Positions 3 to 62,377 of a stretch of DNA of 64,000 nucleotides are shown here, piece after piece. The stretch covers positions 32,001 through 96,000 of the IMG/VR virus record IMGVR_UViG_3300034021_001440; one strand, written 5' to 3'. Both the position numbers and the translations under genes were made by a program. The notes under the pieces are model-generated. The model was not told where the DNA came from, searched no databases, and was given only the letters and a program-made list of their open reading frames with translations. Position 1 is the first letter of the stretch; each line of letters starts with the position of its first letter. This stretch comes from a virus.

Positions 3-1202
3 TATGAGACACGGGCAGCATCGATCTACATTCAAAGTGCCTGGGTTTCTGTCAATTATCACCCCTTGAGTGCTGCTCCGCAATACTTCTTCAACCAGCT
101 GGCTTTGCGATTCTACTCCAATGGGGTGCTTCTTGCCCCCAGCGTTGACTATAACACACAGGACTATCTCATCCGGTACGTCTACAACGACGCCACTCAG
201 GAATACGATTTTACTTATACACCCTTGACGCTTGAGGGCAAAACAATGCTGCCCACGATCGAGGTGTCGGACTCACTGGAAAGCACCTATCGCAAAGACA
301 TCTCTCAGATGATCTTCGGTGGCATTGCCTATACGTTGAGTCCCGCAGTTGCTGACTCCGAGACCCCTCTGCGTCTTTGGAAAACTCAAGACCTTCAGGA
401 TGCTGGCACTGTGGCTCATTTGCTAGAAGATAACTACATCAACCCCTTGCTCGCTGACAGAAACAATGGACCTGGGCTTGAGAACTGGGAGAAATACTTC
501 ATTCGTTTACCGTTGGACTATGGTCGAAACGAAAATCAATGGGAGAAAACAGCCCTGATTTGCCAAGACTTTGGATACTGGGGATCTACTATTGAGCCTG
601 AGTTTATGCGTTGTCCCCCCGAAGATGATGCTCCGGCCATCTATGAAGAACTCTTCCTTTACAACCAGCCCATCCAAGACTACACCTACGTTTACACCGA
701 GCCATATCTGTACTCAAACATCGCCTACTTCACCAGCCCCGAGGTGGGTGACTACGAGAACGCAGGGTTCTTCCCAGCAAACGAGATTCCGTTTGACGGA
801 TTCACCGAGGGTGCTCTGATCTCCTATGACCCCCTTCACAATCGTTTGGCTGACACGGACTCTTCAGTTGGCAACGGCTACGGAGATTGGCTTGGCATCT
901 ACACGAACATTAGCCCTTGCAACCCCTTGACAGGATTCTTCATCAACGACTTGGCTGACGGTGCTCTGACTTATGTTGATGCCCCTCTTTGGGACGCCAG
1001 CATCTACAAGGCTCCTCCCACCTGTGAGCACGATCCCGGATCCTACACCGTTGACGCCAACCACTACAAGATTGGCTACGCTTATTTTGTTGCCGACGCT
1101 TCTGCGGCAGAAGACGGTTTCTTTGACCCTCAACAGCAAGCTGCCTGGAGATATCCTACGGACAAAGTTCCTTCTCTGTATCTGCTGCCCAGGGGCGGGT
1201 AA
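3..1202 (+). CDS. 5'-truncated acidic protein, probably virion structural
   Basis: Frame open from the window start; D/Y/P-rich; lies upstream of baseplate genes. Confidence 0.6.
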   Translation, partial: YETRAASIYIQSAWVSVNYHPLSAAPQYFFNQLALRFYSNGVLLAPSVDYNTQDYLIRYVYNDATQEYDFTYTPLTLEGKTMLPTIEVSDSLESTYRKDISQMIFGGIAYTLSPAVADSETPLRLWKTQDLQDAGTVAHLLEDNYINPLLADRNNGPGLENWEKYFIRLPLDYGRNENQWEKTALICQDFGYWGSTIEPEFMRCPPEDDAPAIYEELFLYNQPIQDYTYVYTEPYLYSNIAYFTSPEVGDYENAGFFPANEIPFDGFTEGALISYDPLHNRLADTDSSVGNGYGDWLGIYTNISPCNPLTGFFINDLADGALTYVDAPLWDASIYKAPPTCEHDPGSYTVDANHYKIGYAYFVADASAAEDGFFDPQQQAAWRYPTDKVPSLYLLPRGG

Positions 1203-1204
1203 AA
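1197..1204 (+). promoter_or_regulatory. GGGTAAAA box (putative late promoter)
   Basis: Recurrent motif overlapping a stop codon, 30 nt before ATG 1227. Confidence 0.7.
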
Positions 1205-1226
1205 CCAAATAGTTCAACCCACCGTT

Positions 1227-1526
1227 ATGGCTACTCGTAGAAAAACTTCTTCTGCAGGGGGATTCTCAACCGAATCTCAACCCGTTGAAGAAGAAAAAGT
1301 TGTGGAAATTACAGAACCTTCGACTCCTGAAGAACTGGAAGAAGAGATTGAAGCCATTGAAGAATTTCTGACCGAAGCAGTTGAGGAAGTGCTTGTAGAG
1401 GAAGAGGCCAAAGAGGAACCACTCGCTCCGGCTCCGGCTCCCGAAGTCAAGCACGAAAATCCTCCTCCCTCCACCACTTCTCTCGTCCGTCACCGTCGTA
1501 ACATTCCGAGATTTGTCAGGCGCTGA
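1227..1526 (+). CDS. hypothetical Glu-rich protein
   Basis: 99-aa ORF after the motif; acidic core with basic ends. Confidence 0.7.
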   Translation: MATRRKTSSAGGFSTESQPVEEEKVVEITEPSTPEELEEEIEAIEEFLTEAVEEVLVEEEAKEEPLAPAPAPEVKHENPPPSTTSLVRHRRNIPRFVRR

Positions 1527-1528
1527 TT

Positions 1529-2344
1529 ATGCTCAAACCGAAGGGACGTAATCTACCGATCGTCAAACAACTGGCTGCGATGCAGCAGGCGTCCGAGTTC
1601 AATATGAAGTACGCTGGTTTGCCAGAGTCTTCTGTTCGCGGCACGATCTATGACGTTGACGATCCTGAAAACCGGGGTCGCGTTCGGGTCCTTTTCGACG
1701 ACTTCAATGCCAATGTGCCCGAAGTCCAGAACGCAGGTGAGTCCTCCGGCAAACGTATTCAAGAAGGTGAACCGCAACTGTCTCACTGGATTGACACGAT
1801 GCCGTCATTCAAGGGAAGACAACCCAAAGGAATGATTGGCAAACGGGTCGGCATCACGATCACGAACCGGCAGTTTCAGTATGCGATTCTCTCGGACGTT
1901 ATCTACGACCCGGAAACTCTTGTCAATGACGCTGCAAAGGGACTGAAGCAGCCAAATAACAGCTCAATGACTCGGCTGCCCGTGTATGACTCCGGGCAAC
2001 TGCCGCCACCGTGCGAAGAAAACCACGGCTGCACAGTGATTGAGAACGACGGCCCACTTCAGTCCGACTGGCTCTGTGTTTGCTTGAAAAGAAACGGAGA
2101 GTATATGTGGGTTCGTCACATTGACGTGTCCCACGGGCACGCAGGACAGAACGACAGCTCACAGCCTCCTGACAACGAGGTTGACAACGAGCAACCGGTC
2201 AACAACCAAACCATTTGGGACTACACGTTCCCCACAACGGCAGGAGAGATGGCAAAAAGAACCAACTATGGGGCAAGTCCCCGCCCCAATCCCTTTGGGG
2301 ACCAGGCGGGTTGGGTTGGACCCGCACCGTCGACGGAGGCATAA
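1529..2344 (+). CDS. baseplate spike/hub protein, gp5/gpV-like OB-fold N-terminus
   Basis: RGTIYDVDDPENRGRVRV resembles the gp5/gpV N-terminal signature. Confidence 0.65.
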   Translation: MLKPKGRNLPIVKQLAAMQQASEFNMKYAGLPESSVRGTIYDVDDPENRGRVRVLFDDFNANVPEVQNAGESSGKRIQEGEPQLSHWIDTMPSFKGRQPKGMIGKRVGITITNRQFQYAILSDVIYDPETLVNDAAKGLKQPNNSSMTRLPVYDSGQLPPPCEENHGCTVIENDGPLQSDWLCVCLKRNGEYMWVRHIDVSHGHAGQNDSSQPPDNEVDNEQPVNNQTIWDYTFPTTAGEMAKRTNYGASPRPNPFGDQAGWVGPAPSTEA

Positions 2345-2347
2345 ACA

Positions 2348-2716
2348 ATGGCAATAGGATACCCCGACGCTGACTACGCAGCACCACCCGACTACTCGGT
2401 GGAGTCAGGAACAAACTGCGGAAATGCCAAACCTGCCCAGTTCTGGCAAGGTGGCAACTTTTGCGGAGACGTAGAAATCAATACGAATCTCACCGTTGGT
2501 GAAAACATCACAGCAACGACCGGTCTGATTGGCAAAGCCCAGTTCACTCAAACGGAAACCCTTGTCAGCGTGCCGGTGACGATTGACGCCAACACAATTG
2601 TCAGAGGGCGCCTCATCACCAACGAGCTGGAAGTCCAAGAGATTGAGTTTCGTGCGGTACGCCTTCCACTTTTTGACAACTACTACGTCTTGGCCTCCTA
2701 CATTCCACCAAGCTAA
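2348..2716 (+). CDS. putative baseplate spike-associated beta-rich protein
   Basis: GDVEINTNLTVGENITAT beta repeats; follows the gp5-like gene. Confidence 0.45.
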   Translation: MAIGYPDADYAAPPDYSVESGTNCGNAKPAQFWQGGNFCGDVEINTNLTVGENITATTGLIGKAQFTQTETLVSVPVTIDANTIVRGRLITNELEVQEIEFRAVRLPLFDNYYVLASYIPPS

Positions 2717-3546
2717 TGGCAATTCGTAGACCGAGCATCTATTCCCCGACGTGGGTCTATCAGGATTTCCTCTACATGGACAATCCTCCAGAGCAACTGC
2801 GTTATCTCCAGGTCAAGTGGGACGGGCAAGTCTACCAAAGAATTTCCGAAACTTTTGACTACAGCAATCCCCCCTACCCTGACATTGAGCAGAAGGGAGG
2901 AGACATCGTTGCGCAAATTGACTACACAATCAGTGGAAAACTGATTACAATCAACGACTGGAACGTTGACTGGCGCGACGAGTGGCCGTTGAGGCAAGCT
3001 GTCAACTACTTGATCAACTGCTTGTACATGCCTGAGAAAGGGTATGTCATTCGCGTTCGTGGGAAAGAAGTTTACAACCAAGCAGGAGAAGCGATTCAGG
3101 TTGCTGACAAAGAGCCGATCGCTTTCTGGGTGTCCGAAACGTTCAAGCCTCTGGACAACGCCCCCAATGACTATCTGGTCCGCTTTGGTGCTCCCGACAC
3201 ACCCCAACCTTATGCAATAAAGTACCAGTTTGCCGCTTCTGTTCAAACGCTGGTAAACGGGGCACAAATTGTCGCAGTTGTACAACCATTCAACCTGCCA
3301 GCTGCTGAAACCTTGTTCTGGGAAGTTGTTGGAGACGAAGTAAACGCAGCATATCTCCTTCAAGGGCCAACCACTGGCTCGGTGCTGATCGACGAAGACC
3401 CGACCTATTTCAACATCCCTTTGACCTACCCAGTGCCGGTGGTTCCGCAAGGTCCCCCGTACATGCTCAACATCAACTTCTATGCCGAGGCCAACAGGCT
3501 GGTTCCCGTTGGGTCAACAACGGTTGAAGTTCCTTCGCTCCCCTGA
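2716..3546 (+). CDS. hypothetical virion protein with C-terminal Ig-like module
   Basis: TLFWEVVG..TGSVLI resembles TLYWELGG..TGSVTI at the end of the 28843 fibre; TAATG coupling. Confidence 0.55.
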   Translation: MAIRRPSIYSPTWVYQDFLYMDNPPEQLRYLQVKWDGQVYQRISETFDYSNPPYPDIEQKGGDIVAQIDYTISGKLITINDWNVDWRDEWPLRQAVNYLINCLYMPEKGYVIRVRGKEVYNQAGEAIQVADKEPIAFWVSETFKPLDNAPNDYLVRFGAPDTPQPYAIKYQFAASVQTLVNGAQIVAVVQPFNLPAAETLFWEVVGDEVNAAYLLQGPTTGSVLIDEDPTYFNIPLTYPVPVVPQGPPYMLNINFYAEANRLVPVGSTTVEVPSLP

Positions 3547-3548
3547 CC

Positions 3549-3556
3549 GGGTAAAA
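3549..3556 (+). promoter_or_regulatory. GGGTAAAA box
   Basis: 30 nt before GTG 3579. Confidence 0.7.
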
Positions 3557-3578
3557 CCTTTGAAAAGGTCGTAGTATT

Positions 3579-4658: not shown

Positions 4659-4666
4659 GGGTAAAA
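4659..4666 (+). promoter_or_regulatory. GGGTAAAA box
   Basis: 34 nt before ATG 4693. Confidence 0.7.
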
Positions 4667-10398: not shown

Positions 10399-10424
10399 GG
10401 GCACCTTCGGGTGCCCTTTGTTTT
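10399..10424 (+). terminator. intrinsic terminator
   Basis: GGGCACC-TTCG-GGTGCCC followed by TTTGTTTT. Confidence 0.85.
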
Positions 10425-10437
10425 GCTTTACAGAACC

Positions 10438-10445
10438 GGGTAAAA
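10438..10445 (+). promoter_or_regulatory. GGGTAAAA box
   Basis: 28 nt before ATG 10466. Confidence 0.7.
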
Positions 10446-11841: not shown

Positions 11842-11842
11842 A

Positions 11843-11875: not shown

Positions 11876-12547
11876 ATGAAAAATTTTTACACCTACGCCT
11901 TTTTGCGAGAAGACGGCACTCCATACTACATCGGAAAAGGTTCTGGAAAACGGGCCTATGCTAAAACAGGAAGGCCGTGCGGTTTCCCGAAAGATAGGTC
12001 TCGCATCCTCATACTGAAAAAAGACTTGACAGAACGGGAAGCTTTTCAGCACGAGGAATATTTAATTTTTGTGCTCGGAAGAAAAGACCTTGGCACGGGA
12101 ATTCTTCACAACAAAACCAACGGAGGTGAGGGTGCTTCCGGAAGGATCGTTAGTGTAGAGATTCGGAGAAAAATCAGTCAAAAACAAATTGGAAAACGAA
12201 TGTCTTTGACTTCGAGGAGAAGGATGAGTGCTGCTCAAAGAGGCAATCGGAATGCATGTGGAACTCGGACAGAGGAACAGAGGCGAAATAACAGTAATGC
12301 GCAAAAAGGGAAAAAGTTATCCGAGGCACACAAAAGGAAGACCAGTGAAACTCTCACTGGCAAGTCAAAAACAAAAATACACAGAGATAGGATTGGTCAA
12401 AGCAAGAAAGGAAATCAGTATGCAAAAGGCAGAAAGCACTGGGTGAATGAAAAGGGAGAAAGACGTTTTCAAGCAGAGTGCCCTGGACCCGATTTTCAAC
12501 GGGGCATAGTTTGGAGTTCGCAGGGTAAAACCAGGAATATGCACTAA
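11876..12547 (+). CDS. GIY-YIG homing endonuclease with NUMOD3-like repeats
   Basis: FYTY..PYYIGKG..R, NKTNGGEG, GKKLSEAHKRKTS; AT-richer; start revised to MKNFY. Confidence 0.85.
   Translation: MKNFYTYAFLREDGTPYYIGKGSGKRAYAKTGRPCGFPKDRSRILILKKDLTEREAFQHEEYLIFVLGRKDLGTGILHNKTNGGEGASGRIVSVEIRRKISQKQIGKRMSLTSRRRMSAAQRGNRNACGTRTEEQRRNNSNAQKGKKLSEAHKRKTSETLTGKSKTKIHRDRIGQSKKGNQYAKGRKHWVNEKGERRFQAECPGPDFQRGIVWSSQGKTRNMH
12523..12530 (+). promoter_or_regulatory. GGGTAAAA box
   Basis: Inside the endonuclease 3' end, 30 nt before ATG 12553. Confidence 0.7.
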
Positions 12548-14582: not shown

Positions 14583-14610
14583 TTTACATTTGGGGGGACA
14601 AAGGTAAAAT
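14583..14610 (+). promoter_or_regulatory. sigma70-like promoter TTTACA-N16-TAAAAT
   Basis: -10 element ends 5 nt before ATG 14616. Confidence 0.55.
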
Positions 14611-15378: not shown

Positions 15379-15386
15379 GGGTAAAA
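15379..15386 (+). promoter_or_regulatory. GGGTAAAA box
   Basis: 33 nt before ATG 15412. Confidence 0.7.
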
Positions 15387-17985: not shown

Positions 17986-18335
17986 ACGTCACCAAAGAAA
18001 TTGAAAGACACCGCCTTCCCTGCGGAGCGGCAACCATCGCGATCGACGGAGTTTGCCGTCGTCGTTTGAGGGATCACTTTGACGCACTGCTGGACAAGTT
18101 GGCCAATGAGGTCAATCCAGAGGGGGTCGATAAGGATATCCTTGAAATGGAGGAAGATGTCGAGATTCCTGAACCTCCCGCACCGGAAGAGACTCGCGAA
18201 GAGAAGAAAAAGCGTTTGATCGCTGAAGGGAAGCTGAGAGCAGAAGTGAACAAAGAGGTTGGCAAGTACAAAGAAAAACTGATGGGCAACAGCAAAATGC
18301 TGCAGGATATCTCGGGTAAAATCAAGAAACGGTAA
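17982..18335 (+). CDS. hypothetical protein
   Basis: ATGA overlap; start MNVTKE. Confidence 0.65.
   Translation: MNVTKEIERHRLPCGAATIAIDGVCRRRLRDHFDALLDKLANEVNPEGVDKDILEMEEDVEIPEPPAPEETREEKKKRLIAEGKLRAEVNKEVGKYKEKLMGNSKMLQDISGKIKKR
18314..18321 (+). promoter_or_regulatory. GGGTAAAA box
   Basis: 31 nt before ATG 18345. Confidence 0.65.
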
Positions 18336-18344: not shown

Positions 18345-18695
18345 ATGACAAATCGTATTGGTGGCGACTTCAATCAAGACGCCATGGAAGCCTTTCGTGC
18401 CGCATATGCTCAACAACTGAGCACTCCCGATGAGGACGGTGTGGCCAATAACTCTGGTCTTCCGACGAATGTAGTGACAAATACTTCACCCTGGATCGAG
18501 CACACTGGGCTGTGGAAATACCCCAGTGGCAAAGGTCCGGATGAAGATTTGAAAACTCCATTTGACCCGAATCAGTATCTTTCCGACGTTATCTCTGACG
18601 ATGATGAGGAAGCCGACAGCTTGAGTGAAGAAGAAGTCGAGCACCTGATCAATGAAATCACTGGATCTGAGGACGAAGAAGAAGAGGCTGAGTAG
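18345..18695 (+). CDS. acidic protein with shared leader motif
   Basis: GDFNQDAMEAFRAAYAQ leader. Confidence 0.7.
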   Translation: MTNRIGGDFNQDAMEAFRAAYAQQLSTPDEDGVANNSGLPTNVVTNTSPWIEHTGLWKYPSGKGPDEDLKTPFDPNQYLSDVISDDDEEADSLSEEEVEHLINEITGSEDEEEEAE

Positions 18696-18702
18696 GGTAA
18701 AA
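18695..18702 (+). promoter_or_regulatory. GGGTAAAA box
   Basis: 33 nt before ATG 18728. Confidence 0.7.
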
Positions 18703-21331: not shown

Positions 21332-21339
21332 GGGTAAAA
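21332..21339 (+). promoter_or_regulatory. GGGTAAAA box
   Basis: 35 nt before ATG 21367. Confidence 0.7.
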
Positions 21340-23308: not shown

Positions 23309-23316
23309 GGGTAAAG
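23309..23316 (+). promoter_or_regulatory. GGGTAAAG variant box
   Basis: 56 nt before ATG 23365. Confidence 0.5.
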
Positions 23317-26300: not shown

Positions 26301-28296
26301 CATCAGCGGTGTTCCTGCTGAGTACAACGCAGATATGACCTATCTACGTGGCACGGTTATTCCCCTCAAGGAGTTTTTCTCAGAGTACGTTGTTGACCAG
26401 GATAACGGCTCCGAAAGTCTTGGCATCATCTTCCACCGAGTTCCTGTGGAAGGCGCCGATACTGTCACGACCTCGGCTTCAGTTGCGGTTCAAACCGCAC
26501 AAGTCATGACGACTCCGTTTGTGACGAATCCAACGTTTGGCCGTCCCGAGATCATTCGTTTCAATGCGTTGAAAGTCTCGCAGCTTGAGAACCCGAAGAA
26601 CGGTATCTCCGTAATTCAAGTCACGAACGGACTCATCGGAGGACCGATTGAGTACATGCGAGTGATCGGACTTTCCTCGAACGTTATCACGGCAGTTCGC
26701 AACTACTACCCCGAATACGCCCAGGGTACTCTCCCTACGACGTGGCCTTCCGGTACAAAAATTACTCCTTGCGTGAGCACCGGGTATCCCGAACCCTCAG
26801 TCTATGACCCGGACTGGGCAACCACCAAGAACACAGTTCTTCGCTACTACGAAGTGATGGGCTTCGCTCGTTCCCTGGTGGCTCCTTTCCTGATTCCCCA
26901 GTATGCTGGGGAGCGAGTCCTGTACAATGCTACACTGCCTCTGGCTCCAATAAACGGGTACGCAAACACAGCAGCTCCGTGGCCTGTGGAGTTCAACAAC
27001 CCTTCAACCATTCTGGCAAACAATCACACCTGGACTTTTGTAGGATATTTCGACTATTCGCGTGGTTTGCCCAAGTATCAAACAAACGAACTCTCCCGGA
27101 AACTGGCAGCTGATTATCAGACTTATGGAACGTGGGGTGGCAAAATCACTTGCTTTGGTGCCGGGGAAAGCGGCGCTCTGGTTGTCTCTGGCGACTTCCG
27201 CGAGTCTGCCACACTGAACTATTTCCAGAACAACACTCCGCTTCAGAACTTCAACGATCGCGTTGTCTACGCTTCGCCGACTCCGATCGACTATCCCGCC
27301 CCGGTGCTGGTCTACTCCGTCGACGATCTCACCCCACAGTTCACTGGTGTCTACAATCCTTCAACAGGTCAAGTCACCGGTCAAACTTCGTTCGAACTCA
27401 AGCGCGGCGGATACCGAATCCCCGCATCCCAACTCTCCAACTTTGGTGTTTTGGTGTTCCTGGGCGGTGTTGCTCAGCTCCCCGTGACTGCCTACACAAT
27501 CAACGGTAGTGAAATCATCTTCACTGAGCCTCCCCTGGTTGGCACAGCTTGCGACATTCGTGTCATCACGACGGACGACCAAAACAAAACTCTGGAAGTC
27601 GTTCCCTTCGCCATCGGCGCACCTTTCAACGGTTCAAACGTCGATTTCCCCTTGACTCCGGACTTGGAGGGATTGACAAACGGCAACTCCCTGGTGTTCC
27701 TTGGTGGCGTTCTTCAGGACCCTCTCGGCCCTCCCACACAGACCGACTTTGCCTACACTGTTGTCAATGGCACTGGTGGTGGTTTGTCAATCTCGTTCAT
27801 TGGTGCTGCCCCGCAAAAAGGCACAACCATTGACGTTCGCGGTGTTCTTTCCGGCAACATCTATCGTACAGCCGGTGTGCCGATCGTGTTTATGTCGTCC
27901 ACGGACGAAATCTCCGACAAGTTTGACGGAGCTCGGACTGCGTTCCCGCTGGCGATTGATGGCGTTTCTCTAGATGCCTTCAAAGTCAATTCCGAGAACA
28001 TGCTCGTGAACCTGGGCGGTGTGATGCAGATTCCCATCGCCAACGCTGCAAGTTCTCAGCTGGGTCTGGCATACAGCGTCGGTGTGAATCCGTCCTCCCA
28101 AGTTCTGGAAATCACTTTCGCCGTTCCCCCAACTTTCGGCACGACTTGCAACATTCGCGTTCTGTCTCAGGATGAGTTCATCACTTGCCCGTTGCCTGAG
28201 CTGTTGATCAACCAGAACCTGAAAGCAGGTCCTGGCGTTGAAACTTCGATCGACGGAGAGCTGATTGGTCTGGATGAAGGTCTCATTGGCGGGTAA
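23365..28296 (+). CDS. large virion structural protein (baseplate wedge/fibre anchor type)
   Basis: VAPDFPEATDS..PFVTINRAILE and C-terminal DD...F.G....F.L..VFLGGV.Q.P repeats typical of cyanophage structural proteins. Confidence 0.75.
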   Translation: MAATKIILKRSSLPGKRPNTNNLEAGEIALNTNANEPGLFFEVTDGQIVKAGPTAYLPDAPTVSPARGELWVDTDTKSLSIGTPTNEWQKVAAPFLGGTAALTVFVAPDFPEATDSLANDGQSVPFVTINRAILEVTKKIILDANNGLSSGNNRYLIVLAPSSHCVVNGPGATLGEFTANFDSPYTEVTQQALQQFNVPTVGGLILPRGVSIIGMDLKKSEVHPVYVPKYTHPAFPINYKQTSTGPVYQNQPLSSIFRWSGNTYVSNFNCFDKLTERVVNSVRVDETTGVAIFSSPRPHGLNFNDFVQVTYSNIADQAGATFANGAYYANPVNSFEFQLSLNNWETLGTTGVLASTLPTSFTLPVSNGKVKLQVDNIYPYYIPSDGVSYELSNYSHHRLSVFKNCSLQDLNDFYIKVQLAFPTLFGGSVDKNVATAPEYQIVAEAQTLYPQNILSNSASNSSPYENQVNHRSNYGMANVDADGEIVSGFKSIIVNSSTAVILQKDPCAYEVYADSDQIWRTLTTTAQSRMPLDTPIWSVPTDFQLEILNEASIPNIRYYYTTLLVTSGQSTGLTDIDNDFRHFGFRIRGAGAYMQAQSTYTIGAAIGCWAMGGALMNLTSATSNFGSIAFQAEGFAGIGTLGGATQVGQGFLQSGIVRPLALTEPQVVSDFQKKILPLGSRVVHIGDDPTNAEVTLIYLRQAFDPASILPFSLKPGSAVFLGDATCTYVAYFVDNGEPTCILSESNPAVNPYAPGGAILRVRKSDSNLPSGGVSETSFPYIRRFIDPRADTEKCYGFYVESTNPGSQAPQTGAVLRLNQVGKDLSTTIKRNYQFDPGQFGGIAQTFTVDQVETVQYNFSLNYNNKVSDSAQSTAYAVYASLSDNSGPWIQSYPVNGVQVPFNTQEGNYITNNYRNYYAAENNLWSALYYSTTFNPENGPTKVSPNKADSPFVPAAILDRQENIRDAWQGYVPDPYYSYYISGVPAEYNADMTYLRGTVIPLKEFFSEYVVDQDNGSESLGIIFHRVPVEGADTVTTSASVAVQTAQVMTTPFVTNPTFGRPEIIRFNALKVSQLENPKNGISVIQVTNGLIGGPIEYMRVIGLSSNVITAVRNYYPEYAQGTLPTTWPSGTKITPCVSTGYPEPSVYDPDWATTKNTVLRYYEVMGFARSLVAPFLIPQYAGERVLYNATLPLAPINGYANTAAPWPVEFNNPSTILANNHTWTFVGYFDYSRGLPKYQTNELSRKLAADYQTYGTWGGKITCFGAGESGALVVSGDFRESATLNYFQNNTPLQNFNDRVVYASPTPIDYPAPVLVYSVDDLTPQFTGVYNPSTGQVTGQTSFELKRGGYRIPASQLSNFGVLVFLGGVAQLPVTAYTINGSEIIFTEPPLVGTACDIRVITTDDQNKTLEVVPFAIGAPFNGSNVDFPLTPDLEGLTNGNSLVFLGGVLQDPLGPPTQTDFAYTVVNGTGGGLSISFIGAAPQKGTTIDVRGVLSGNIYRTAGVPIVFMSSTDEISDKFDGARTAFPLAIDGVSLDAFKVNSENMLVNLGGVMQIPIANAASSQLGLAYSVGVNPSSQVLEITFAVPPTFGTTCNIRVLSQDEFITCPLPELLINQNLKAGPGVETSIDGELIGLDEGLIGG

Positions 28297-28298
28297 AA
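28291..28298 (+). promoter_or_regulatory. GGGTAAAA box
   Basis: Forms the Gly-stop of the upstream gene; 54 nt before ATG 28345. Confidence 0.65.
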
Positions 28299-31153: not shown

Positions 31154-31161
31154 GGGTAAAA
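31154..31161 (+). promoter_or_regulatory. GGGTAAAA box
   Basis: 42 nt before ATG 31196. Confidence 0.7.
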
Positions 31162-33157: not shown

Positions 33158-33162
33158 TGACA

Positions 33163-33188
33163 AGGGACCTTCGGGTCCCTTTTCTTTT
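33163..33188 (+). terminator. intrinsic terminator
   Basis: AGGGACC-TTCG-GGTCCCT followed by TTTCTTTT. Confidence 0.85.
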
Positions 33189-33190
33189 GC

Positions 33191-33198
33191 GGGTAAAA
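33191..33198 (+). promoter_or_regulatory. GGGTAAAA box
   Basis: 33 nt before ATG 33224. Confidence 0.7.
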
Positions 33199-37426: not shown

Positions 37427-37434
37427 GGGTAAAA
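37427..37434 (+). promoter_or_regulatory. GGGTAAAA box
   Basis: 35 nt before ATG 37462. Confidence 0.7.
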
Positions 37435-39852: not shown

Positions 39853-39876
39853 GGGGACCTTCGGGTCCCCATTTTT
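39853..39876 (+). terminator. intrinsic terminator
   Basis: GGGGACC-TTCG-GGTCCCC followed by ATTTTT. Confidence 0.8.
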
Positions 39877-39882
39877 GTTGCC

Positions 39883-39890
39883 GGGTAAAA
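39883..39890 (+). promoter_or_regulatory. GGGTAAAA box
   Basis: 33 nt before ATG 39916. Confidence 0.7.
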
Positions 39891-43627: not shown

Positions 43628-43635
43628 GGGTAAAA
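43628..43635 (+). promoter_or_regulatory. GGGTAAAA box
   Basis: 34 nt before ATG 43662. Confidence 0.7.
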
Positions 43636-45098: not shown

Positions 45099-45126
45099 TT
45101 TACTCTCCCTCCCACTCCGCTAAACT
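45099..45126 (+). promoter_or_regulatory. sigma70-like promoter TTTACT-N16-TAAACT
   Basis: Same hexamers and spacing as at 59339. Confidence 0.6.
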
Positions 45127-46093: not shown

Positions 46094-46884
46094 ACCGCTT
46101 CGTGTTTCTTGCTGGGCTGCCTCGCACAGGTTCCACTGTGCTTGGCGCCCTTTTGAATCAGCACCCGTTTCTGTATCCAACGGAGACGTCGATGGTTCAC
46201 CGCCACATTCACGAAGTTTCAAACTTTTTTGTAGGAGAGTATCCTCTCTACGACACGAACGACCCCAACTCACCCCTGTGGGGAATCGTGAGAGGTATTC
46301 TGCAAGGGGCGTATGAACACGTCAAGGGGAAAGTAGTCATTGAGAAAAGCAGGGGGTGGTCGTGGGAAATCGACATCCTGAGAAAGGCTTTGGGGGAGCC
46401 ACCCAAGTTCGTCGCCACTGTGCGGTCCATTCCCGAAATTATCTCTTCTTTCATCCTCCTGGCCAATAAAATTGGCGATGACTCAAAGATTCATACACAG
46501 TTGAGGGAGACAGGTTATCCCATAACCACCTGGAACCTGTCGCACTTCATCTGGGAAAAGTACATCGATGCTGACTGGCAAGGTTTCCGTCAAGCATACG
46601 AAACAAACACTGACTTGTTTCACCTGATTGAGTACGACGACCTTGTGCAAAAACCTGAGGAAGTTCTCAATAATTTTTATTCTTTTATTGAGGTGCCTCC
46701 CATTAAAGTTCACACGGACTCCCTTGTGCGCGGTGCCGTCGAAAATGACGATGCCTTTGGGTTGCCAGGACTGCACGACATCCGCTCAGACTTGTCTCGC
46801 ACTTCTCCCCCCGCACTTGAAGTTCTCGGAGAAGAGTGCTACAACTTTTGGGAGGCTCAGCGCCTGGAATTTTGGCGAGGGTAA
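46090..46884 (+). CDS. PAPS-dependent sulfotransferase family protein
   Basis: GLPRTGST..LLNQHP, VRSIPEIISS, IEYDDLVQKPEE. Confidence 0.85.
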   Translation: MNRFVFLAGLPRTGSTVLGALLNQHPFLYPTETSMVHRHIHEVSNFFVGEYPLYDTNDPNSPLWGIVRGILQGAYEHVKGKVVIEKSRGWSWEIDILRKALGEPPKFVATVRSIPEIISSFILLANKIGDDSKIHTQLRETGYPITTWNLSHFIWEKYIDADWQGFRQAYETNTDLFHLIEYDDLVQKPEEVLNNFYSFIEVPPIKVHTDSLVRGAVENDDAFGLPGLHDIRSDLSRTSPPALEVLGEECYNFWEAQRLEFWRG

Positions 46885-46886
46885 AA
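46879..46886 (+). promoter_or_regulatory. GGGTAAAA box
   Basis: Gly-stop overlap; 30 nt before ATG 46909. Confidence 0.7.
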
Positions 46887-46908: not shown

Positions 46909-47403
46909 ATGGCTGCGCTCAATTTCCCAACCTCACCAACACCGGGTCAGCTGTATCCAAGTCCAGCAATCTCTGGTGTGTCGCAATACCAGTGGGACAA
47001 CACTGCTGGTGTGTGGAACACCGTTGCCACTTTCGTGAAGCTCAATAATCAAAGTGCGTACAACAGTTATGTTTGGCCAGTCGCAGACGGTCTGGCTGGG
47101 CAGCAACTGGAAACGGACGGTTCCGGGAATCTGTACTGGGATGCCGCTTCGAATCCGACCTTCTTCTATCTGCAACTGGACAGTTCAGTTCCGTTCGACG
47201 GAATTCAAACAATTTTCACCCTCATCGATCCTGCCACACTCAACGCCTACTCCCCGACGCCAAACTCCAACATCGAGGTTTTCCTCGGCGGTGTTCCTCA
47301 GCAGTTTGGCACAGCCTACACCGTGGCTGGTTCGACAATTACCTTCACCAACCCGCCCATCGCAGGCACTTCGTTCTTTGCGACAACCGTCATTCAAGGG
47401 TAA
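46909..47403 (+). CDS. short fibre/adaptor protein
   Basis: NFPTSPTPGQLY N-terminus; FDG....F.L..VFLGGVPQ repeat as in the 23365 protein. Confidence 0.7.
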   Translation: MAALNFPTSPTPGQLYPSPAISGVSQYQWDNTAGVWNTVATFVKLNNQSAYNSYVWPVADGLAGQQLETDGSGNLYWDAASNPTFFYLQLDSSVPFDGIQTIFTLIDPATLNAYSPTPNSNIEVFLGGVPQQFGTAYTVAGSTITFTNPPIAGTSFFATTVIQG

Positions 47404-47405
47404 AA
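47398..47405 (+). promoter_or_regulatory. GGGTAAAA box
   Basis: Gly-stop overlap; 36 nt before ATG 47434. Confidence 0.7.
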
Positions 47406-50400: not shown

Positions 50401-51378
50401 ACAGGTTTTGGAACCGGGGCTCTTCGTCAACAAACCGGGGGATGCAACACTGCAGTGGGTGCCAGCTCCGGTCAAGGTCAACCGGGATCCACTGGTGCTT
50501 GTAACACCACTGTTGGTTACTTTGCCGGTTCCTGCATCACGACTGCCACTGGTGTCTCAGCCATGGGATGGTGCGCCGCCTGTTCTGTTTCTACAGGACT
50601 GAACGCAACGGTTTTTGGATCTGAAGCTGGATGCACTCTCTCAACTGGTATCAACAACACTCTAATTGGCCAACGCGCTGGTTGCGCAATAACCACAGGA
50701 GCCAGTAACACTGCGGTTGGTCAAGCCGCTGGTAAAGAAGGTATAGGAGGAACAAACAACGTTTTGATGGGAGACAACTCCGGTCGTTGTATGACGGGCG
50801 GTAACTTCAACTCCGTACTTGGGTCTCAAGCCTTTAATGGTGCAACTGGTTCTACGCCTAACAACCTGGGTCAGTTCAACACGGCCCTTGGCTATCAGGC
50901 CATGGGTATCTTCACGGGTGGGAATAACAACATTGCCATCGGTTATGCATCTGGCTATACTTTCTGCAACCTGGCGGGCCTCAACAACCAGATTGTGATG
51001 GGTAATGCCTCACATACCAATGCCTTCATTCAAGTCGCATGGACGGTTGTTTCCGACGAGCGCAAGAAAAAGATCAAAGGACCCGTGGCTCTCGGCCTGG
51101 ACTTTGTCAAAAACCTTGAACCCATCGAATACCAGTTTATCGACGAAGAGACTCAAGAGATCAAAGACGAGACATACCGTTATGGTTTCTCAGCTCAAAA
51201 GGTTCGTGCCCAGGAAGTTGACCCTGAGCATCCGGTGATTGTGGGTGGCTCGGATGAAAAAGGTTGGAATCTTACCACCGACTACATGTTGCCGCCTCTG
51301 GTCAATGCCATTCAAGAGCTCTCTGCTCAAGTTGAAGAATTGAAAGCAAAACTTGCTGCCCTCGAGGGTAAAAATTAG
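47434..51378 (+). CDS. extremely Cys-rich tail fibre with 17-aa repeats and S74 chaperone
   Basis: Tandem NTAVGxxALxxNxxGxx repeats; VSDERKK..YGFSAQ..LVNAIQELSAQV. Confidence 0.85.
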   Translation: MALTRAQLLMGNCAQGCVLPGQVQGVKQGAGVCIANDGTISFFAGTSTGVVKTNNPTAFNSYIWPNADGIAGSQLTTDGLGNLAWGPAPGDLFIKLQPTSTQTGAFANITGQAGCVAMTFIAAPNQFAIQTCDGDASLFGVTAGRGSGCVATNTAFGACSLFTNTTGNSNTAIGYKTLCSNQVGNCNTAIGFCSLVSNSAGCLNTAVGYQSQTFTSTGNCNTSIGFCSLYNNTNGGCNTAVGNETLYCNTSGLCNIAVGPRALYCNVSGCCNIAAGLCALQNNTTGCSNLAIGAFASNCNTIACFNFAIGDCALFNNQTVGCNMAIGCKAMFCTTIGTRNLAIGTCSQYNTTTGCYNTTLGHCSIGRGVNAGCCNVAVGFCSLFENTAGLCNIAIGQETMACNTSGCCNIGVGAFALRSNSSGCCNIGIGSQALCCLTTGSCNVGVGTFALCGNTAGLSNTAVGDSAMQNNNTGCFNAAVGSDSLCCIVSGCYNTAAGSCSMVNTTVGASNVGVGFRAMEANQDGSCNVAVGQCALGASSTADCNVVLGFEAAADNCGNRNVVIGHQSGFNGGGNPSDNVIVGALAGCSMTTACCVTLVGACAGQTITNGDFNTHIGALAGFGTNYTGVCNSSLGLRSLCALTTGACNTAVGADAMCSATSGCLNVAVGNQSLQSLVSACGNTALGQTAMQNAVSGCFNVAVGTCSLINNASGCYNTVVGVEAGGAGGASFSCATFVGFNAGVAATTAQLATAVGWCSAANLSTGNCNTAVGACSIFNLSTGCFNTAVGNNAGVSLTTGGCNTAIGFNALCSAASTDANTAVGWCSAASLTTWPNTAVGFRSLTTMATGQYNTAIGTGSLRDLASGVNNTAVGDGAGKCLASGSCNTLIGSNTGQLAGSSFNNATLVGNGAGANLSTAPLATAVGFCAAQALSTGLYNTAVGGCALFSLTSGNLNTAVGMNAGKNMTTGCYNTAFGQGALRDVTTANQNTGFGTGALRQQTGGCNTAVGASSGQGQPGSTGACNTTVGYFAGSCITTATGVSAMGWCAACSVSTGLNATVFGSEAGCTLSTGINNTLIGQRAGCAITTGASNTAVGQAAGKEGIGGTNNVLMGDNSGRCMTGGNFNSVLGSQAFNGATGSTPNNLGQFNTALGYQAMGIFTGGNNNIAIGYASGYTFCNLAGLNNQIVMGNASHTNAFIQVAWTVVSDERKKKIKGPVALGLDFVKNLEPIEYQFIDEETQEIKDETYRYGFSAQKVRAQEVDPEHPVIVGGSDEKGWNLTTDYMLPPLVNAIQELSAQVEELKAKLAALEGKN
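51366..51373 (+). promoter_or_regulatory. GGGTAAAA box
   Basis: 31 nt before ATG 51397. Confidence 0.6.
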
Positions 51379-54402: not shown

Positions 54403-54410
54403 GGGTAAAA
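54403..54410 (+). promoter_or_regulatory. GGGTAAAA box
   Basis: 36 nt before GTG 54439. Confidence 0.7.
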
Positions 54411-57492: not shown

Positions 57493-57500
57493 ATTTACCC
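57493..57500 (-). promoter_or_regulatory. GGGTAAAT variant box on the minus strand
   Basis: 32 nt before minus-strand ATG 57468. Confidence 0.6.
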
Positions 57501-57501: not shown

Positions 57502-57528
57502 TTTACCGACGGCGGCGGGAGCTATACT
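57502..57528 (+). promoter_or_regulatory. sigma70-like promoter TTTACC-N15-TATACT
   Basis: Heads the 57555 gene cluster. Confidence 0.5.
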
Positions 57529-58696: not shown

Positions 58697-58708
58697 TGTG
58701 GGTATAAC
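58680..58708 (+). promoter_or_regulatory. sigma70-like promoter TTGACT-N17-TATAAC
   Basis: Upstream of the endonuclease ATG 58729; also reads as GGGTATAA. Confidence 0.5.
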
Positions 58709-58728: not shown

Positions 58729-59337
58729 ATGAAAAAACACTTCTATGTTTATTATTCCTATGAGGAGTGGGGTAGAGGATACATCGGCCGCCGCGAATGT
58801 ATTTGTTTGCCCGAGGAGGACACCAAATACTTTGGGTCTTTCAGGGACAAATCTTTTCAACCCACGAGCAAAATAATCCTCGCCACTTTCAACACACGAG
58901 AAGAAATGTGTCAGGCAGAAGTTGATTTGCATCTACTATTTCGAGTTGATGAAAATCCTCACTTTGCAAACAAAGCACGACAAACCTCCAACAAATTCTG
59001 TATGGATATGCAAGGAGAAAAAAATCCCAACTTTGGGAATAGGTGGAAGTGGACGGAGGAACAAAGGAGAGCGAGAAGCCAACTCTGTAAAGGAAGAAAA
59101 GGCACACCTCACTCCGAAAATACAAAAGAAAAAATTCGACAAACTCGAAAAGCAAAAAATTGTGGCATTGGAAATCAAAACGCACGGGGGAATTCATTCT
59201 CTCTCACCGATGAACAAAAAGAAAATAGGCGAAGAGCAGCCCTGGCACGGCCCATCCTTGAGTGCCCCGTGTGCGGAAGGGAGTGCAAAGGCACTGCCGG
59301 CGTCGCCAACCATTTGAGAAGCCACGGAGACTTTTGA
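58729..59337 (+). CDS. GIY-YIG (Seg-like) homing endonuclease with NUMOD3 and C2H2 finger
   Basis: FYVY..GYIG..YFGS; HSENTKEKI; CPVC..HLRSH. Confidence 0.8.
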   Translation: MKKHFYVYYSYEEWGRGYIGRRECICLPEEDTKYFGSFRDKSFQPTSKIILATFNTREEMCQAEVDLHLLFRVDENPHFANKARQTSNKFCMDMQGEKNPNFGNRWKWTEEQRRARSQLCKGRKGTPHSENTKEKIRQTRKAKNCGIGNQNARGNSFSLTDEQKENRRRAALARPILECPVCGRECKGTAGVANHLRSHGDF

Positions 59338-59338
59338 G

Positions 59339-59366
59339 TTTACTTCTCTGGCAAAAACACTAAACT
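59339..59366 (+). promoter_or_regulatory. sigma70-like promoter TTTACT-N16-TAAACT
   Basis: Heads the thyX cluster. Confidence 0.6.
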
Positions 59367-59388
59367 GTTATTGAATCTACCTAGACCG

Positions 59389-59775
59389 ATGATCACTTTT
59401 GGCACGTATCGCCTGACCTACACTCCCCCCGAAGAGACTTTTGGCTCTGTGGAGTCGACAGTTGATATGTCAATCTCCTCCGAAGCAGACCTGAACGATA
59501 TGCTCGGCTTCTTCGAGGATTTTCTCCGGGCCACCGGATACCAACTTGGCAACTCTATTCTGCAACTGGAAGAGCCGCCTGCTCTCAACAATTCGAACCA
59601 AGATTTCTGGGAAGACGACGGGGTCTCGCTCGTTGGCAATCCTTGGACCGCAACCCTTGGAAACTACGGCAAGAGTGACCAGGGTATTGTCTTCACTGGC
59701 ACACGTCTTCCCGGTGGTGATGATCACCTGTCGTTCCGCTCCTGCTTTGGCTCTGACGTTGTCACCTTCAGCTGA
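59389..59775 (+). CDS. hypothetical protein
   Basis: LNDMLGFFEDFLRATGY motif common in phage hypothetical proteins. Confidence 0.65.
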   Translation: MITFGTYRLTYTPPEETFGSVESTVDMSISSEADLNDMLGFFEDFLRATGYQLGNSILQLEEPPALNNSNQDFWEDDGVSLVGNPWTATLGNYGKSDQGIVFTGTRLPGGDDHLSFRSCFGSDVVTFS

Positions 59776-60560
59776 TGAAAAATACCTCTCCCTGGTTTAT
59801 TGAAGGGTCGTCCAAAGCTCGGATGGTCTGGGTCACCCCAGACGCCGAAGAGCACATTGCCTACATTGCTCGCGTCAGCAATCCGAAAAACCAAGAGAAC
59901 GAAAAGTTTGAAGGACTGCTGAAGTATTGCATCAAGCACGGCCACGTTTCCGTCTTCGAGCAAGCAGCAATGTGCGTGGAGATTGTCACTCCGCTTGCGA
60001 TTGCCACCCAGTTGCTGAGGCACCGTTCCTTCTGCTTTCAGCAGTTTTCGATGCGATACAGCAGCAACGAAGAACTGAAAGAGTTGCTCGGTGACTTTGG
60101 GAATCTGTATTACGTTCCTGAGGAAGCTCGTCTCCAAGACACAAAGAATCGTCAGAATAGCATCTTCGCAGAGGACGCCCAGCTCGACGACGCAATGCAG
60201 AACACAATGCTTTCTGCCTACAACATCGCAGACCTTTGTTACAATGATCTCCTTGAACGTGGCATCGCAAAAGAAATCGCAAGGTTCGTACTTCCGCAGG
60301 GTGGTTTTACTCGCTTGTACGTTACAGGTAGCTGTCGCAGCTGGATGCATTATCTTGGGGTCCGTGATGACGAAGGTGTTGTTCAGTGGGAACACGTCGA
60401 ACTCGCCCGTGCCATCCGGCCAATCTTCGCCACGCAGTTCCCAACCGTGAACCGTGCCTTCTTCAATCGCGATCGAAACCCGCTGGAGGTGGAGAATGAA
60501 GAGTTGAAGGCTGAGGTTGCTTTTCTGAGAGCACTTCAAAGGGAAAAGAACAATGGATAA
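59775..60560 (+). CDS. thyX: FAD-dependent thymidylate synthase
   Basis: HGHVSVFEQ, RHRSFCFQQFSMRY, AKEIARFVLP, QWEH. Confidence 0.93.
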   Translation: MKNTSPWFIEGSSKARMVWVTPDAEEHIAYIARVSNPKNQENEKFEGLLKYCIKHGHVSVFEQAAMCVEIVTPLAIATQLLRHRSFCFQQFSMRYSSNEELKELLGDFGNLYYVPEEARLQDTKNRQNSIFAEDAQLDDAMQNTMLSAYNIADLCYNDLLERGIAKEIARFVLPQGGFTRLYVTGSCRSWMHYLGVRDDEGVVQWEHVELARAIRPIFATQFPTVNRAFFNRDRNPLEVENEELKAEVAFLRALQREKNNG

Positions 60561-61176
60561 AGTTCGAGGTTTCGACCAGTTTCTCTACACTTTTGACGTT
60601 CCGTTTCGCATTCTGAATACTGCTCAACAGATTGCTTTTTCTCTTGACTATCACGAAAATCACTACAACCTCACTTCGAAAGTTGAAGACTCAATTGGTT
60701 TGCCAGAGATGGCAATCGTGCGAGAGTGGATCGACGAACAGCTGGAGGAACTGCGTCAGGAAGAACGGTTCGAGTGTGACTCAGTCAAGACTTGCATCGA
60801 GTGGTTCAACAAGTCTTTTCCAGGAATGTGGCATCACGCACACACTCACGACAACTCTTTCCTGAGTGGCCTGATCTACCTGACTGAGTCCAACGCAGAG
60901 ACCTGGTTCAGTATTCCCAGCATCTGGAGCAAAGAGTACACGATGCTGAATCTGAGTCCTGCAAATAAAGGTCTCACGTTTCTAAAGTATCCTACAACTG
61001 TGGGGAAGATGATTGTCTTTCCTTCGAGTTTACTTCACAGTGTATCTGAACATAATAATCCAGAGCCCCGTTTCTCATTGGCATTCAATGCCTTTCCGTC
61101 GGGACTCGTCGGAAGCAGGTCGGAAACGCACCATCGCCGTTTCATGCACGTTACCGTTAATCAGACTACCCTTTAA
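60553..61176 (+). CDS. putative 2OG-Fe(II) oxygenase
   Basis: HTHDNSFLSGLIYL..VFPSSLLHSV..RFSLAFN. Confidence 0.85.
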   Translation: MDKVRGFDQFLYTFDVPFRILNTAQQIAFSLDYHENHYNLTSKVEDSIGLPEMAIVREWIDEQLEELRQEERFECDSVKTCIEWFNKSFPGMWHHAHTHDNSFLSGLIYLTESNAETWFSIPSIWSKEYTMLNLSPANKGLTFLKYPTTVGKMIVFPSSLLHSVSEHNNPEPRFSLAFNAFPSGLVGSRSETHHRRFMHVTVNQTTL

Positions 61177-61400
61177 TGACTTCCACTCTTACAAAGCAGC
61201 TCGTCCACGCCTACTGGCACATTCTCGAGGACTTCCCTTCGAAAGACGGTGAATACGTTGTTGTGTTTGCGACTGACGAGGGCACCTTTGGCTACCCAGA
61301 TGTCTGGGAGTTTACTGCCCGCGATGGGTGGCAACCGCTCTTCGGACTGAGTCACGAGGACCAACCCACTCACTGGTGTAACTTGCCAATGCCCAAATGA
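61176..61400 (+). CDS. DUF551-like small protein
   Basis: W.....P...GEYVV..PTHWCNLP. Confidence 0.65.
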   Translation: MTSTLTKQLVHAYWHILEDFPSKDGEYVVVFATDEGTFGYPDVWEFTARDGWQPLFGLSHEDQPTHWCNLPMPK

Positions 61401-62368
61401 CTGATAGACCGAAACTAGAGAGCGCCTTTACTCTCGACCACAATCCATCGCCCTTAGTGGTAGTTGACTTTCACGTTTACCTTCACGACGTCAAGCGATG
61501 GTTTGAGGATAAGATTGAAGGCTCCTTTAGTGAAGAGGTCGAAGATAAACTCATCAAGGGGGCGTGGGCACTGAAGGTCAATCGCGGACCTGACATGCTC
61601 CCTCGTCATTCCCACCGCATTCTTGTCGTTGCCGACTCTCGTTTCCAGGACACAGGAAACTACTGGCGCGACAAGTTCATGAAAGAATCACAAGAAGTTC
61701 AAGAGGCTTGGAGCAACTATGCTGAGAAAGAGGGCAAAGACCTTGCTGAGTTACCTACGCATTACAAGGGAACGCGAACTGAAAAGGATGCCACCTTTTG
61801 GCGAGTATTTGACATTGGGTGGGAGTATGTCAACGCCTACTTCCCGGTTTTCTCTCAGGAAGGTTACGAGGCAGACGACATTGCGGGCGCTATCTATCGC
61901 ATCAGTCGGGATAACCTTGGCGACGGCATTGCTCATAAAAGGCAAATCCTCCTCTCGACGCTAGACCGCGACTGGTCTCAACTTGTAGATGAAGAGCACC
62001 GTGTCTATTTCGCCAACTCCAGAGTACCGTTCCCTTCGGAAAAAATACAAGAGAGACTTGTGGGTAACCAGGGCGTCATCGAGCATACTGCTCATCGCAT
62101 GGGTTTTGAACTCGATCACCCTAAGAACCTCGCTGACTGGAAAGTCAAGCACGGGGACATGGGGGATAATCTTCCTCCAGGTAGTCCTAAGTGTTTGTTT
62201 GATCTTTGCGAGGCAAACCCTCATTACACTATTGAAAAAGCGGCACCGTGGTACGTGGAGTTGGTAGAGTGTATGAATGATCCCGCGTCGAACATTCGTG
62301 ACGACCACTTTGAGCAGACTCTTAGACAGTTTGCCAAGATTTGCCTAGAGGCCCCAGTCAAACTCTAG
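61397..62368 (+). CDS. 5'-3' exonuclease / flap endonuclease (T4 RNase H / T5 D15-like)
   Basis: VVVD, YKGTR, GYEADDIAG, DRDWSQL, GDMGDN. Confidence 0.85.
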   Translation: MTDRPKLESAFTLDHNPSPLVVVDFHVYLHDVKRWFEDKIEGSFSEEVEDKLIKGAWALKVNRGPDMLPRHSHRILVVADSRFQDTGNYWRDKFMKESQEVQEAWSNYAEKEGKDLAELPTHYKGTRTEKDATFWRVFDIGWEYVNAYFPVFSQEGYEADDIAGAIYRISRDNLGDGIAHKRQILLSTLDRDWSQLVDEEHRVYFANSRVPFPSEKIQERLVGNQGVIEHTAHRMGFELDHPKNLADWKVKHGDMGDNLPPGSPKCLFDLCEANPHYTIEKAAPWYVELVECMNDPASNIRDDHFEQTLRQFAKICLEAPVKL

Positions 62369-62369
62369 C

Positions 62370-62377
62370 GGGTAAAA
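62370..62377 (+). promoter_or_regulatory. GGGTAAAA box
   Basis: 31 nt before ATG 62401. Confidence 0.7.

Follow-up and report, generated by a model that had tools for sequence, protein, structure and literature searches.

In a 64,000-nt stretch of cyanophage DNA (the window: bases 32001-96000 of the 112,418-bp IMG/VR virus record IMGVR_UViG_3300034021_001440; G+C 52.7%), the exact 8-base word GGGTAAAA occurs 20 times, always on the + strand and always shortly before a start codon. This box probably makes up, by itself, the entire recognition element of a class of phage-specific promoters that are read by a sigma factor of the phage itself. The promoter role of the box, the sigma factor as its reader, the exact start site, and the timing of use are all points that we infer, and the term "late" is taken from the functions of the genes served, not from timing.

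The sequence-only reading, made from the letters of the window, had listed 20 exact copies of the box, and every coordinate was confirmed on the + strand; its three variants, at 15150, 23309, and minus-strand 57500, were all found as well (Table 1). No exact copy lies on the - strand of the window, and dinucleotide shuffles of the window contained a mean of 1.45 copies (maximum, 6). The genome-wide count and position test that this reading had proposed bore out the bias, with 31 copies on the + strand of the whole 112-kb record and 0 on the other strand. When all 8-mers were scanned against a third-order Markov model, GGGTAAAA ranked first in the present genome (P ~1e-31). It also ranked first (P ~1e-31) in Synechococcus phage S-CBWM1 (Aokuangvirus, 139 kb), the nearest cultured phage. 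In both scans, the next independent words came far lower.

The distance from the box to the gene (d) was counted from the first G of the box to the start codon, using curated gene starts (those at 33224 and 39916 were recounted from the sequence). All 20 window copies lie 28 to 54 nt before a start codon, with a median of 33 nt. Since only 2.9% of + strand positions have a start codon 25 to 60 nt downstream, 20 of 20 would be expected by chance with P ~1e-31. The spacing had been given as 28 to 36 nt with outliers at 42, 54, and 56; we obtained 28 to 37 nt for 18 of the 20 copies and outliers of 42 and 54, and the outlier of 56 was not found. As had been noticed, no copy lies deep inside a gene: none is more than 30 nt inside, and the deepest begins 25 nt before a stop codon. 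The base 5′ of the box is C in 13 window copies, in line with the frequent preceding C reported earlier, and A in the other 7, never G or T; this C/A preference is absent in S-CBWM1. At 1197, 28291, 46879, and 47398, the upstream gene terminates in frame at the TAA within the box, and its end and the next putative promoter thus share bases; about ten such sites were seen in S-CBWM1.

Strict strand specificity and an exact, short consensus would also suit a mark on the DNA that has nothing to do with expression, for instance a modification site or a nick site confined to one strand. Strand-specific nick sites do occur in some T5-like and LUZ24-like phages. A mark of this kind gives no reason for a spacing of 28 to 37 nt before start codons, however, and the boxes invert with inverted genes and track orthologous genes. 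We regard it as extremely improbable.

The box appears to stand alone. No information was found at any position from -45 to -2 in the present genome or S-CBWM1, and no enriched or shared -35-like k-mer was found upstream of the boxes in either genome. The sole enriched upstream k-mer was CTTCGG, the loop of terminator hairpins. Both results agree with the earlier claim of a single-box element. Only the 8 positions of the box are invariant; they are followed by 2 or 3 weakly conserved ones, with a weak YY preference 3′ of the box and a weak T/A preference 5 to 8 nt after it. Because the flanks carry no information, the box was rejected as part of a longer repeat or mobile element. In S-CBWM1 only, a repeat of ~35 nt, containing GTGAAAGATT and CACTGTCCCA, stands immediately before several boxes; it is absent from the present genome and may represent either a small mobile element or a site for a regulator.

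The seventh base after the box is A in 17 of the 20 window copies, in 21 of 31 genome-wide, and in 17 of 33 in S-CBWM1, and in 13 of the 20 window copies a pyrimidine precedes this A; the earlier reading had seen N5 followed by TA or CA in about half of the copies. At S-CBWM1 10790 and 110001, and at the window variant at 14602, an ATG begins exactly 6 nt after the box; transcription starting at the A of these codons would yield leaderless mRNAs. The A 7 nt after the box fits a transcription start, and the start that had been predicted at the YA gains indirect support from both the conserved A and the three sites with an ATG there. The variant at 14602 precedes a 173-aa gene that follows the terminase gene (ATG at 14616) and overlaps a two-box site. 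The site from 14583 to 14616 is possibly a hybrid host/phage promoter or a leaderless promoter.

A short, exact, strand-specific word at a fixed distance from genes would also suit the binding site of a phage activator or repressor beside the true promoter, like the MotA boxes of T4 or the sites of P2 Ogr-type activators, and the weak T/A preference after the box is in keeping with this. The -10 hexamer that should then lie downstream was sought and rejected, as TAnnnT was found at the expected place in only 2 of the 20 window sites. Nothing is conserved upstream. In addition, strong terminators with a TTCG loop end 10 to 22 nt before three boxes (10438, 33191, and 39883), leaving no room for another promoter, and a start further downstream is difficult to reconcile with an ATG that follows the box by 6 nt. 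These observations make an activator or repressor site quite unlikely. The three terminator hairpins are nearly identical and G+C rich with a CTTCGG loop, and a related contig (G2) has similar ones before the orthologous boxes.

The terminators also bear on a possible role of the box at the RNA level, whether in processing, in stabilizing 5′ ends, or in enhancing the translation of polycistronic transcripts. The tight spacing to the start codon (median, 33 nt) would suit such a role; many copies extend into the end of the preceding gene and would be transcribed by read-through, and Shine-Dalgarno sequences are weak in many leaders. However, boxes stand directly after strong terminators, and two boxes of S-CBWM1 precede tRNA genes; together, these sites indicate that the box is not a translation signal. 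The AUG is 22 to 28 nt away from the box, which is the limit of a ribosome's reach or past it, and in the three cases noted above the ATG follows it by only 6 nt. An RNA element is therefore very unlikely.

The promoter reading can also be set against the relatives of the phage. Its large terminase is 54% identical to that of S-CBWM1 and 34% identical to that of S-TIM5, the next relative; gene order agrees with S-CBWM1, with protein identities of 30 to 66%, and a megablast search of the window against phage records gave no match. Judged from these comparisons, the phage is not T4-like, its relatives being S-CBWM1 and, more distantly, S-TIM5. Nearly all genes of the record lie on a single coding strand. 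The window encodes the large terminase, a head-tail adaptor, baseplate proteins, many very large fiber proteins, PhoH, a kinase, a sulfotransferase, and a cluster with an exonuclease, ThyX, and a 5′-3′ exonuclease. The record is probably incomplete (CheckV completeness estimate, 51%) and has no tRNA genes anywhere (G000), whereas S-CBWM1 and two related contigs carry tRNA arrays. Another contig of the clade measures 112,424 bp, nearly equal to the present record.

In S-CBWM1, GGGTAAAA is the most overrepresented 8-mer, with 33 gene-strand copies and 1 on the opposite strand. Fourteen IMG/VR contigs carry the same sigma gene (described below), and the seven examined in full had gene-strand/opposite-strand counts of 9/0, 13/0, 24/1, 28/1, 24/0, 13/1, and 8/0. 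Across nine clade genomes (781 kb), there are 183 gene-strand copies and 4 on the opposite strand. Two of these four were examined, and both have an ATG 31 to 37 nt downstream on their own strand; the one in contig G003 forms a back-to-back pair with a gene-strand copy, and the copy in G004 forms a similar pair, judged by position only. S-TIM5, a candidate relative with the same box, was rejected because it showed no enrichment: the box has 8 and 4 copies there, against 7 and 3 for the reversed word, and the best 8-mer reaches P = 4e-9. Enrichment was likewise lacking in two T4-like cyanophages whose sigma homologues are distant (2 or 3 copies each).

Box and gene were conserved together. Among orthologous pairs of the present phage and S-CBWM1, 10 have a box in both, 5 and 4 in one only, and 32 in neither (Fisher P = 1.4e-4), despite protein identities as low as 30 to 66%. 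Portal, protease, baseplate, fiber, and PhoH genes are preceded by boxes, and the sheath gene has one ~100 nt upstream in both genomes. Gyrase, DNA polymerase, primase, exonuclease, and ribonucleotide reductase genes and the sigma gene itself have none. The gene at 10466-11689 is a homologue of S-CBWM1 gp101, itself preceded by a box, and the minor-tail-like gene at 28345 likewise has an S-CBWM1 orthologue with a box. Opposite the variant at 23309, S-CBWM1 has an exact box at 71518; for the window's - strand gene, the S-CBWM1 orthologue, gp123, has AGGTAAAA at d = 33. In aligned orthologous intergenic regions (up to four genomes), nothing is shared beyond the box and the beginning of the coding sequence, and the box at 62370 is exact in four genomes while its flanks diverge. 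The box of the 1,314-aa fiber gene is retained in the G2 and S-CBWM1 orthologues although it adjoins a gene end in the present phage and a terminator in a relative; this difference in upstream context indicates that the box belongs with the downstream gene and not the upstream one.

Some genes without a box have a different candidate signal. The pattern TT[GT]ACn-N15-17-[TC]AnACT occurs at 10 sites on the + strand of the genome, where 1.5 are expected, and 9 of the 10 lie 10 to 34 nt before nonvirion genes: gyrase, a sulfotransferase gene pair, the exonuclease/ThyX cluster, a high-light-inducible-like gene, and the ribonucleotide reductase region. Among the small genes at genome positions 1-4000, there are 10 sigma-70-like two-box sites (1.6 expected), most within 1-1800 (L005:1-1800), including repeated TTGACT-N17/18-CATACT. 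The two-box pattern has 5 sites in S-CBWM1 (0.9 expected), one of them before psbA. A generic sigma-70 scan of the window gave 14 to 16 sites, against 9 to 10 expected, which is not an enrichment; the narrower TTTACn-N16-TAnACT alone was enriched. The absence of the box before DNA metabolism and glycosyltransferase clusters had been pointed out previously. Indeed, no box precedes the sulfotransferase cluster (45161-46884) or the exonuclease/ThyX/5′-3′ exonuclease cluster (57555-62368), and two-box promoters would explain why it is missing there. The genome has two predicted promoter classes split by function, with the box before virion and morphogenesis genes and host-type two-box promoters before DNA metabolism and glycosyltransferase genes, as in the division of gene classes first proposed.

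Table 1. Boxes, variants, two-box sites, terminators, and repeats. Coordinates are window positions unless another sequence is named; d is the box-to-start distance
Feature	Coordinates	Strand	d (nt)	Context
Box GGGTAAAA	1197..1204	+	30	TAA is the stop of the upstream 970-aa gene; ATG 1227
Box	3549..3556	+	30	Before 3579-4658, head-tail adaptor-like gene (Mu gp36 domain)
Box	4659..4666	+	34	Before 4693-5163 (tail-fiber-like) and 1,739-aa fiber gene at 5168
Box	10438..10445	+	28	Before 10466-11689; AGGAGG between box and ATG
Box	12523..12530	+	30	Within last 25 nt of gene 11720-12547; before small gene 12553 and large terminase 12831
Variant AGGTAAAA, newly added	14602-14609	+		Overlaps two-box site 14583..14610, TTTACA-N16-TAAAAT
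Variant GCGTAAAA	15150..15157	+	35	Before 15185-15370
Box	15379..15386	+	33	Before PhoH-like gene 15412; S-CBWM1 PhoH gene likewise has a box
Box	18314..18321	+	31	Before 18345-18695
Box	18695..18702	+	33	Before 18728-19369
Box	21332..21339	+	35	Before 21367-21891 and kinase-like gene 21888
Variant GGGTAAAG	23309..23316	+		Before 1,648-aa baseplate-wedge-like gene 23350
Box	28291..28298	+	54	TAA is the stop of the 1,648-aa gene; before minor-tail-like gene 28345
Box	31154..31161	+	42	Before 653-aa gene 31196
Box	33191..33198	+	33	Before ~1,400-aa fiber gene (ATG 33224)
Box	37427..37434	+	35	Before 788-aa gene 37462
Box	39883..39890	+	33	Before ~1,236-aa fiber gene (ATG 39916)
Box	43628..43635	+	34	Before 478-aa tail-fiber-like gene 43662
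Box	46879..46886	+	30	TAA is the stop of the sulfotransferase gene; before baseplate-wedge-like gene 46909
Box	47398..47405	+	36	TAA is a stop codon; before 1,314-aa fiber gene 47434
Box	51366..51373	+	31	Before 51397-51675, then ~900-aa fiber gene
Box	54403..54410	+	36	Before 758-aa fiber gene (GTG 54439); kept in G2 orthologue
Variant GGGTAAAT	57493..57500	-		32 nt before ATG of the window's only - strand gene (57474-56716)
Possible variant GGGTATAA, newly added, weak	58700..58707	+		29 nt before ATG 58729
Box	62370..62377	+	31	Before 62401-63048 (homologue of S-CBWM1 gp2)
Two-box candidate TTTACT-N16-TAAACT	45099..45126	+		Before 45161 (310-aa gene, then sulfotransferase)
Two-box candidate TTTACC-N15-TATACT	57502..57528	+		Before 57555 cluster (RNase T-type exonuclease, ThyX, 2OG-Fe oxygenase, 5′-3′ exonuclease)
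Two-box candidate TTTACT-N16-TAAACT	59339..59366	+		Before 59371 and ThyX
Two-box sites outside window	genome 1, 629, 1713, 106366, 109155, 110238			
Intrinsic terminator	10399..10426	+		Hairpin 10399-10416: 7-bp stem, TTCG loop, T run; directly before box 10438
Intrinsic terminator	33162..33189	+		Hairpin 33162-33181: 8-bp stem, TTCG loop, T run; ends 10 nt before box 33191
Intrinsic terminator	39853..39880	+		Hairpin 39853-39870: 7-bp stem, TTCG loop, T run; ends 13 nt before box 39883
~35-nt repeat, S-CBWM1	S-CBWM1 26636-26661, 65860-65886, 126614-126637, 135659-135702			
~35-nt repeat, S-CBWM1	S-CBWM1 84569-84582	-		

A frameshift suspected at 51397-51700 was rejected, as the region holds two ordinary neighboring genes.

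A distinct sigma factor or RNA polymerase encoded elsewhere in the genome had been predicted, and a sigma gene was found 11.7 kb past the end of the window (genome 107715-108305, 196 aa). It is the only sigma gene in the record. The protein matches Sigma70_r2 (E = 1.8e-16) and scores 60.6 bits, above the cutoff, with the superfamily model TIGR02937, and its C terminus can be aligned with region 4.2 of RpoS. In the structural model (mean pLDDT 78), residues 4-89 form sigma2 and residues 120-195 form sigma4; the linker between them (91-118) is disordered, sigma3 is lacking, and the only fold matches were sigma factors. Models for SigK, RpoS, FliA, SigB/F/G, and cyanobacterial SigF score alike and far below their cutoffs, assigning the protein to no named subgroup. 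The factor is 49% identical to S-CBWM1 gp142 and 47 to 83% identical across the clade, and every contig that carries the sigma gene has a strand-biased box. The metagenomic homologues number >500 (E <= 1e-5), the best 120 of which are all 69 to 83% identical; a pairwise search detected no similarity between the S-TIM5 SigF gene and the present factor. A two-box site, TTGCCG-N17-TATAAT, which is a consensus match only, ends 22 nt before the likely start codon of the sigma gene. The end of the sigma gene overlaps another gene, and a box (genome 108313; L007:12313-12320) lies in the first codons of the latter. Two relatives retain the 8-mer despite neighboring codons that encode different residues, which suggests that the DNA word itself is under selection, perhaps as an internal promoter.

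A search with PF00940 for a single-subunit, T7-like RNA polymerase gave no match, in a search whose positive controls were also unmatched, and the complete annotation of S-CBWM1 lists no RNA polymerase. Promoters for such an enzyme would extend over ~17 to 23 bp and include the start site; only 8 positions are invariant here.

The box resembles a known promoter element of the host phylum. In Synechocystis PCC 6803, SigF promoters (PpilA1 and sigF; Asayama and Imamura 2008) have the -12 region GGGTAA(G), with GGG at -15 to -13 and T at -12 (PMC2532724). Two further features are required in these promoters, a TAGGC element at -32 and a purine-rich stretch upstream; they are read by a nonprimary sigma-70-family factor and are not recognized by sigma-70-type holoenzyme (PMC2532724). 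Every box begins with GGGTAA and so matches the SigF -12 region. This likeness raises the alternative that the box is a promoter read by a host group 3, SigF-type factor, with the phage sigma factor serving other targets or helping. In S-CBWM1, moreover, the box often extends as GGGTAAAAT, which contains the near-consensus -10 hexamer TAAAAT; in the present genome, C mostly follows the box, in place of the T at -7 that primary sigma factors need. Other SigF promoter features are missing. YAGGC lies 10 to 30 nt upstream at 1 of 31 sites (0.9 expected) and, in S-CBWM1, at 1 of 33 (0.84 expected), which is chance level, and the upstream region is not purine rich (purine fractions of 0.47 and 0.52, against backgrounds of 0.49 and 0.52). 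The box is not a full SigF-type promoter. The phage factor cannot be assigned to SigF by its sequence either: the NCBIfam SigF model scores it below the SigK, RpoS, and FliA models, and it lacks sigma3. A conserved phage sigma factor also needs targets, and the box is the only strongly overrepresented strand-specific word. Reading by a host SigF-type factor is thus unlikely, and a phage factor remains the preferred reader.

Several observations weigh against this assignment of reader and label. The sigma factor is linked to the box by co-occurrence only, and this link is in part circular, since most clade contigs were chosen via the sigma gene. A second sigma gene, gp152, is present in S-CBWM1; given this gene and the incomplete record (CheckV 51%, no tRNA array), another factor could read the box. 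The sigma4 domain is retained and yet no -35 element is seen, which needs explaining. Some nonvirion genes also have boxes, among them PhoH and a 315-aa gene that lies upstream of DNA polymerase, and the label "late" may therefore oversimplify. Finally, at least one copy outside the window, at genome 106260 (L007:10260-10267), encodes the G-K-T of a P-loop that is conserved at the protein level in relatives; it is a coding coincidence and not a promoter.

Among known phage systems, phiEco32 is closest in mode of action. In this Escherichia coli phage, gp36, a sigma-70-family factor that takes the place of the host sigma factor, reads middle and late promoters that consist of a single element centered at -11.5, and its early genes use host sigma-70 (PMC12276001). 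The present phage would share with it a sigma-70-family factor of its own, a single element, and host-type early promoters, but the consensus differs (AATGTA in phiEco32 versus GGGTAAAA here), as do the host phylum and the phage lineage. The earlier reading had drawn its analogy with T4, whose late promoters carry TATAAATA and depend on gp55, gp33, and gp45 (PMC2988020). Like these, the box is a single 8-bp -10-type element without a -35 element that stands before virion genes and would be read by a phage factor, so that this part of the analogy stands. The overrepresented word, though, is GGGTAAAA and not TATAAATA. T4 gp55 is not known to have a sigma4 domain, whereas the factor found here is a conventional sigma-70-family protein with sigma2 and sigma4 (residues 120-195) and is not of the gp55 type. 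By these features the predicted system is not a member of the T4 system. The consensus, described earlier as different, does differ from the T4 box, but it resembles the -12 element of SigF/SigB-type promoters. Gram-positive SigB/SigF-type promoters have the -10 element GGGTAT with a GTTT-type -35 element at a fixed spacing; the GGGTA core is in common, and the GTTT-type element is absent here. A phage sigma factor with its own promoter consensus is a known strategy and not a new kind of system. A full-text literature search for the 8-mer, which did not include the original S-CBWM1 genome paper, returned primers and unrelated matches only and no report of the motif, nor do the papers citing S-CBWM1 mention it.

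Together, the data suggest the following scheme. In early infection, two-box promoters (TTGACT/TTTACn-N15-17-TAnACT) would be read by host RNA polymerase carrying its primary sigma factor; these promoters would serve small early genes, replication and nucleotide metabolism genes, and the glycosyltransferase cluster, and probably the sigma gene of the phage as well. The 196-aa phage factor, built as sigma2-linker-sigma4, would then take over the host core enzyme. Its box would serve as a -10-type element with GGG at about -15 to -13, T at -12, and AAAA at -11 to -8, and no -35 element. With the box aligned to the SigF -12 region, the start falls 6 to 7 nt after it, at the conserved A, and the new holoenzyme would start at a purine there. 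The resulting 5′ leaders would be ~15 to 25 nt long, or the mRNAs leaderless where the ATG sits at the start. The output would be ~24 short transcription units of head, tail, baseplate, and fiber genes, several of them ending at TTCG-loop terminators just before the next box.

A further idea, which we consider possible but rather doubtful, is that a two-domain sigma factor (sigma2 and sigma4 without sigma3), representing a large environmental group, drives -35-independent initiation from an 8-bp word that mimics the SigF -12 element of the host. Genes of the host SigF regulon, pilins for example, could thus also be activated by the phage factor, or the phage late genes could be fired by host SigF, and sigma4 would only hold the polymerase flap or dock a coactivator.

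For a poorly known cyanophage lineage, the analysis provides a predicted transcription map, with ~24 units in the window, two promoter classes, and terminators. A factor that retains sigma4 without apparent use of a -35 element, together with a SigF-like box, would make a case for specificity set by sigma2 alone. The pair may also offer an orthogonal promoter and sigma factor for cyanobacteria, and the cultured member of the lineage, S-CBWM1 (grown on Synechococcus CBW1002), makes the prediction directly testable.

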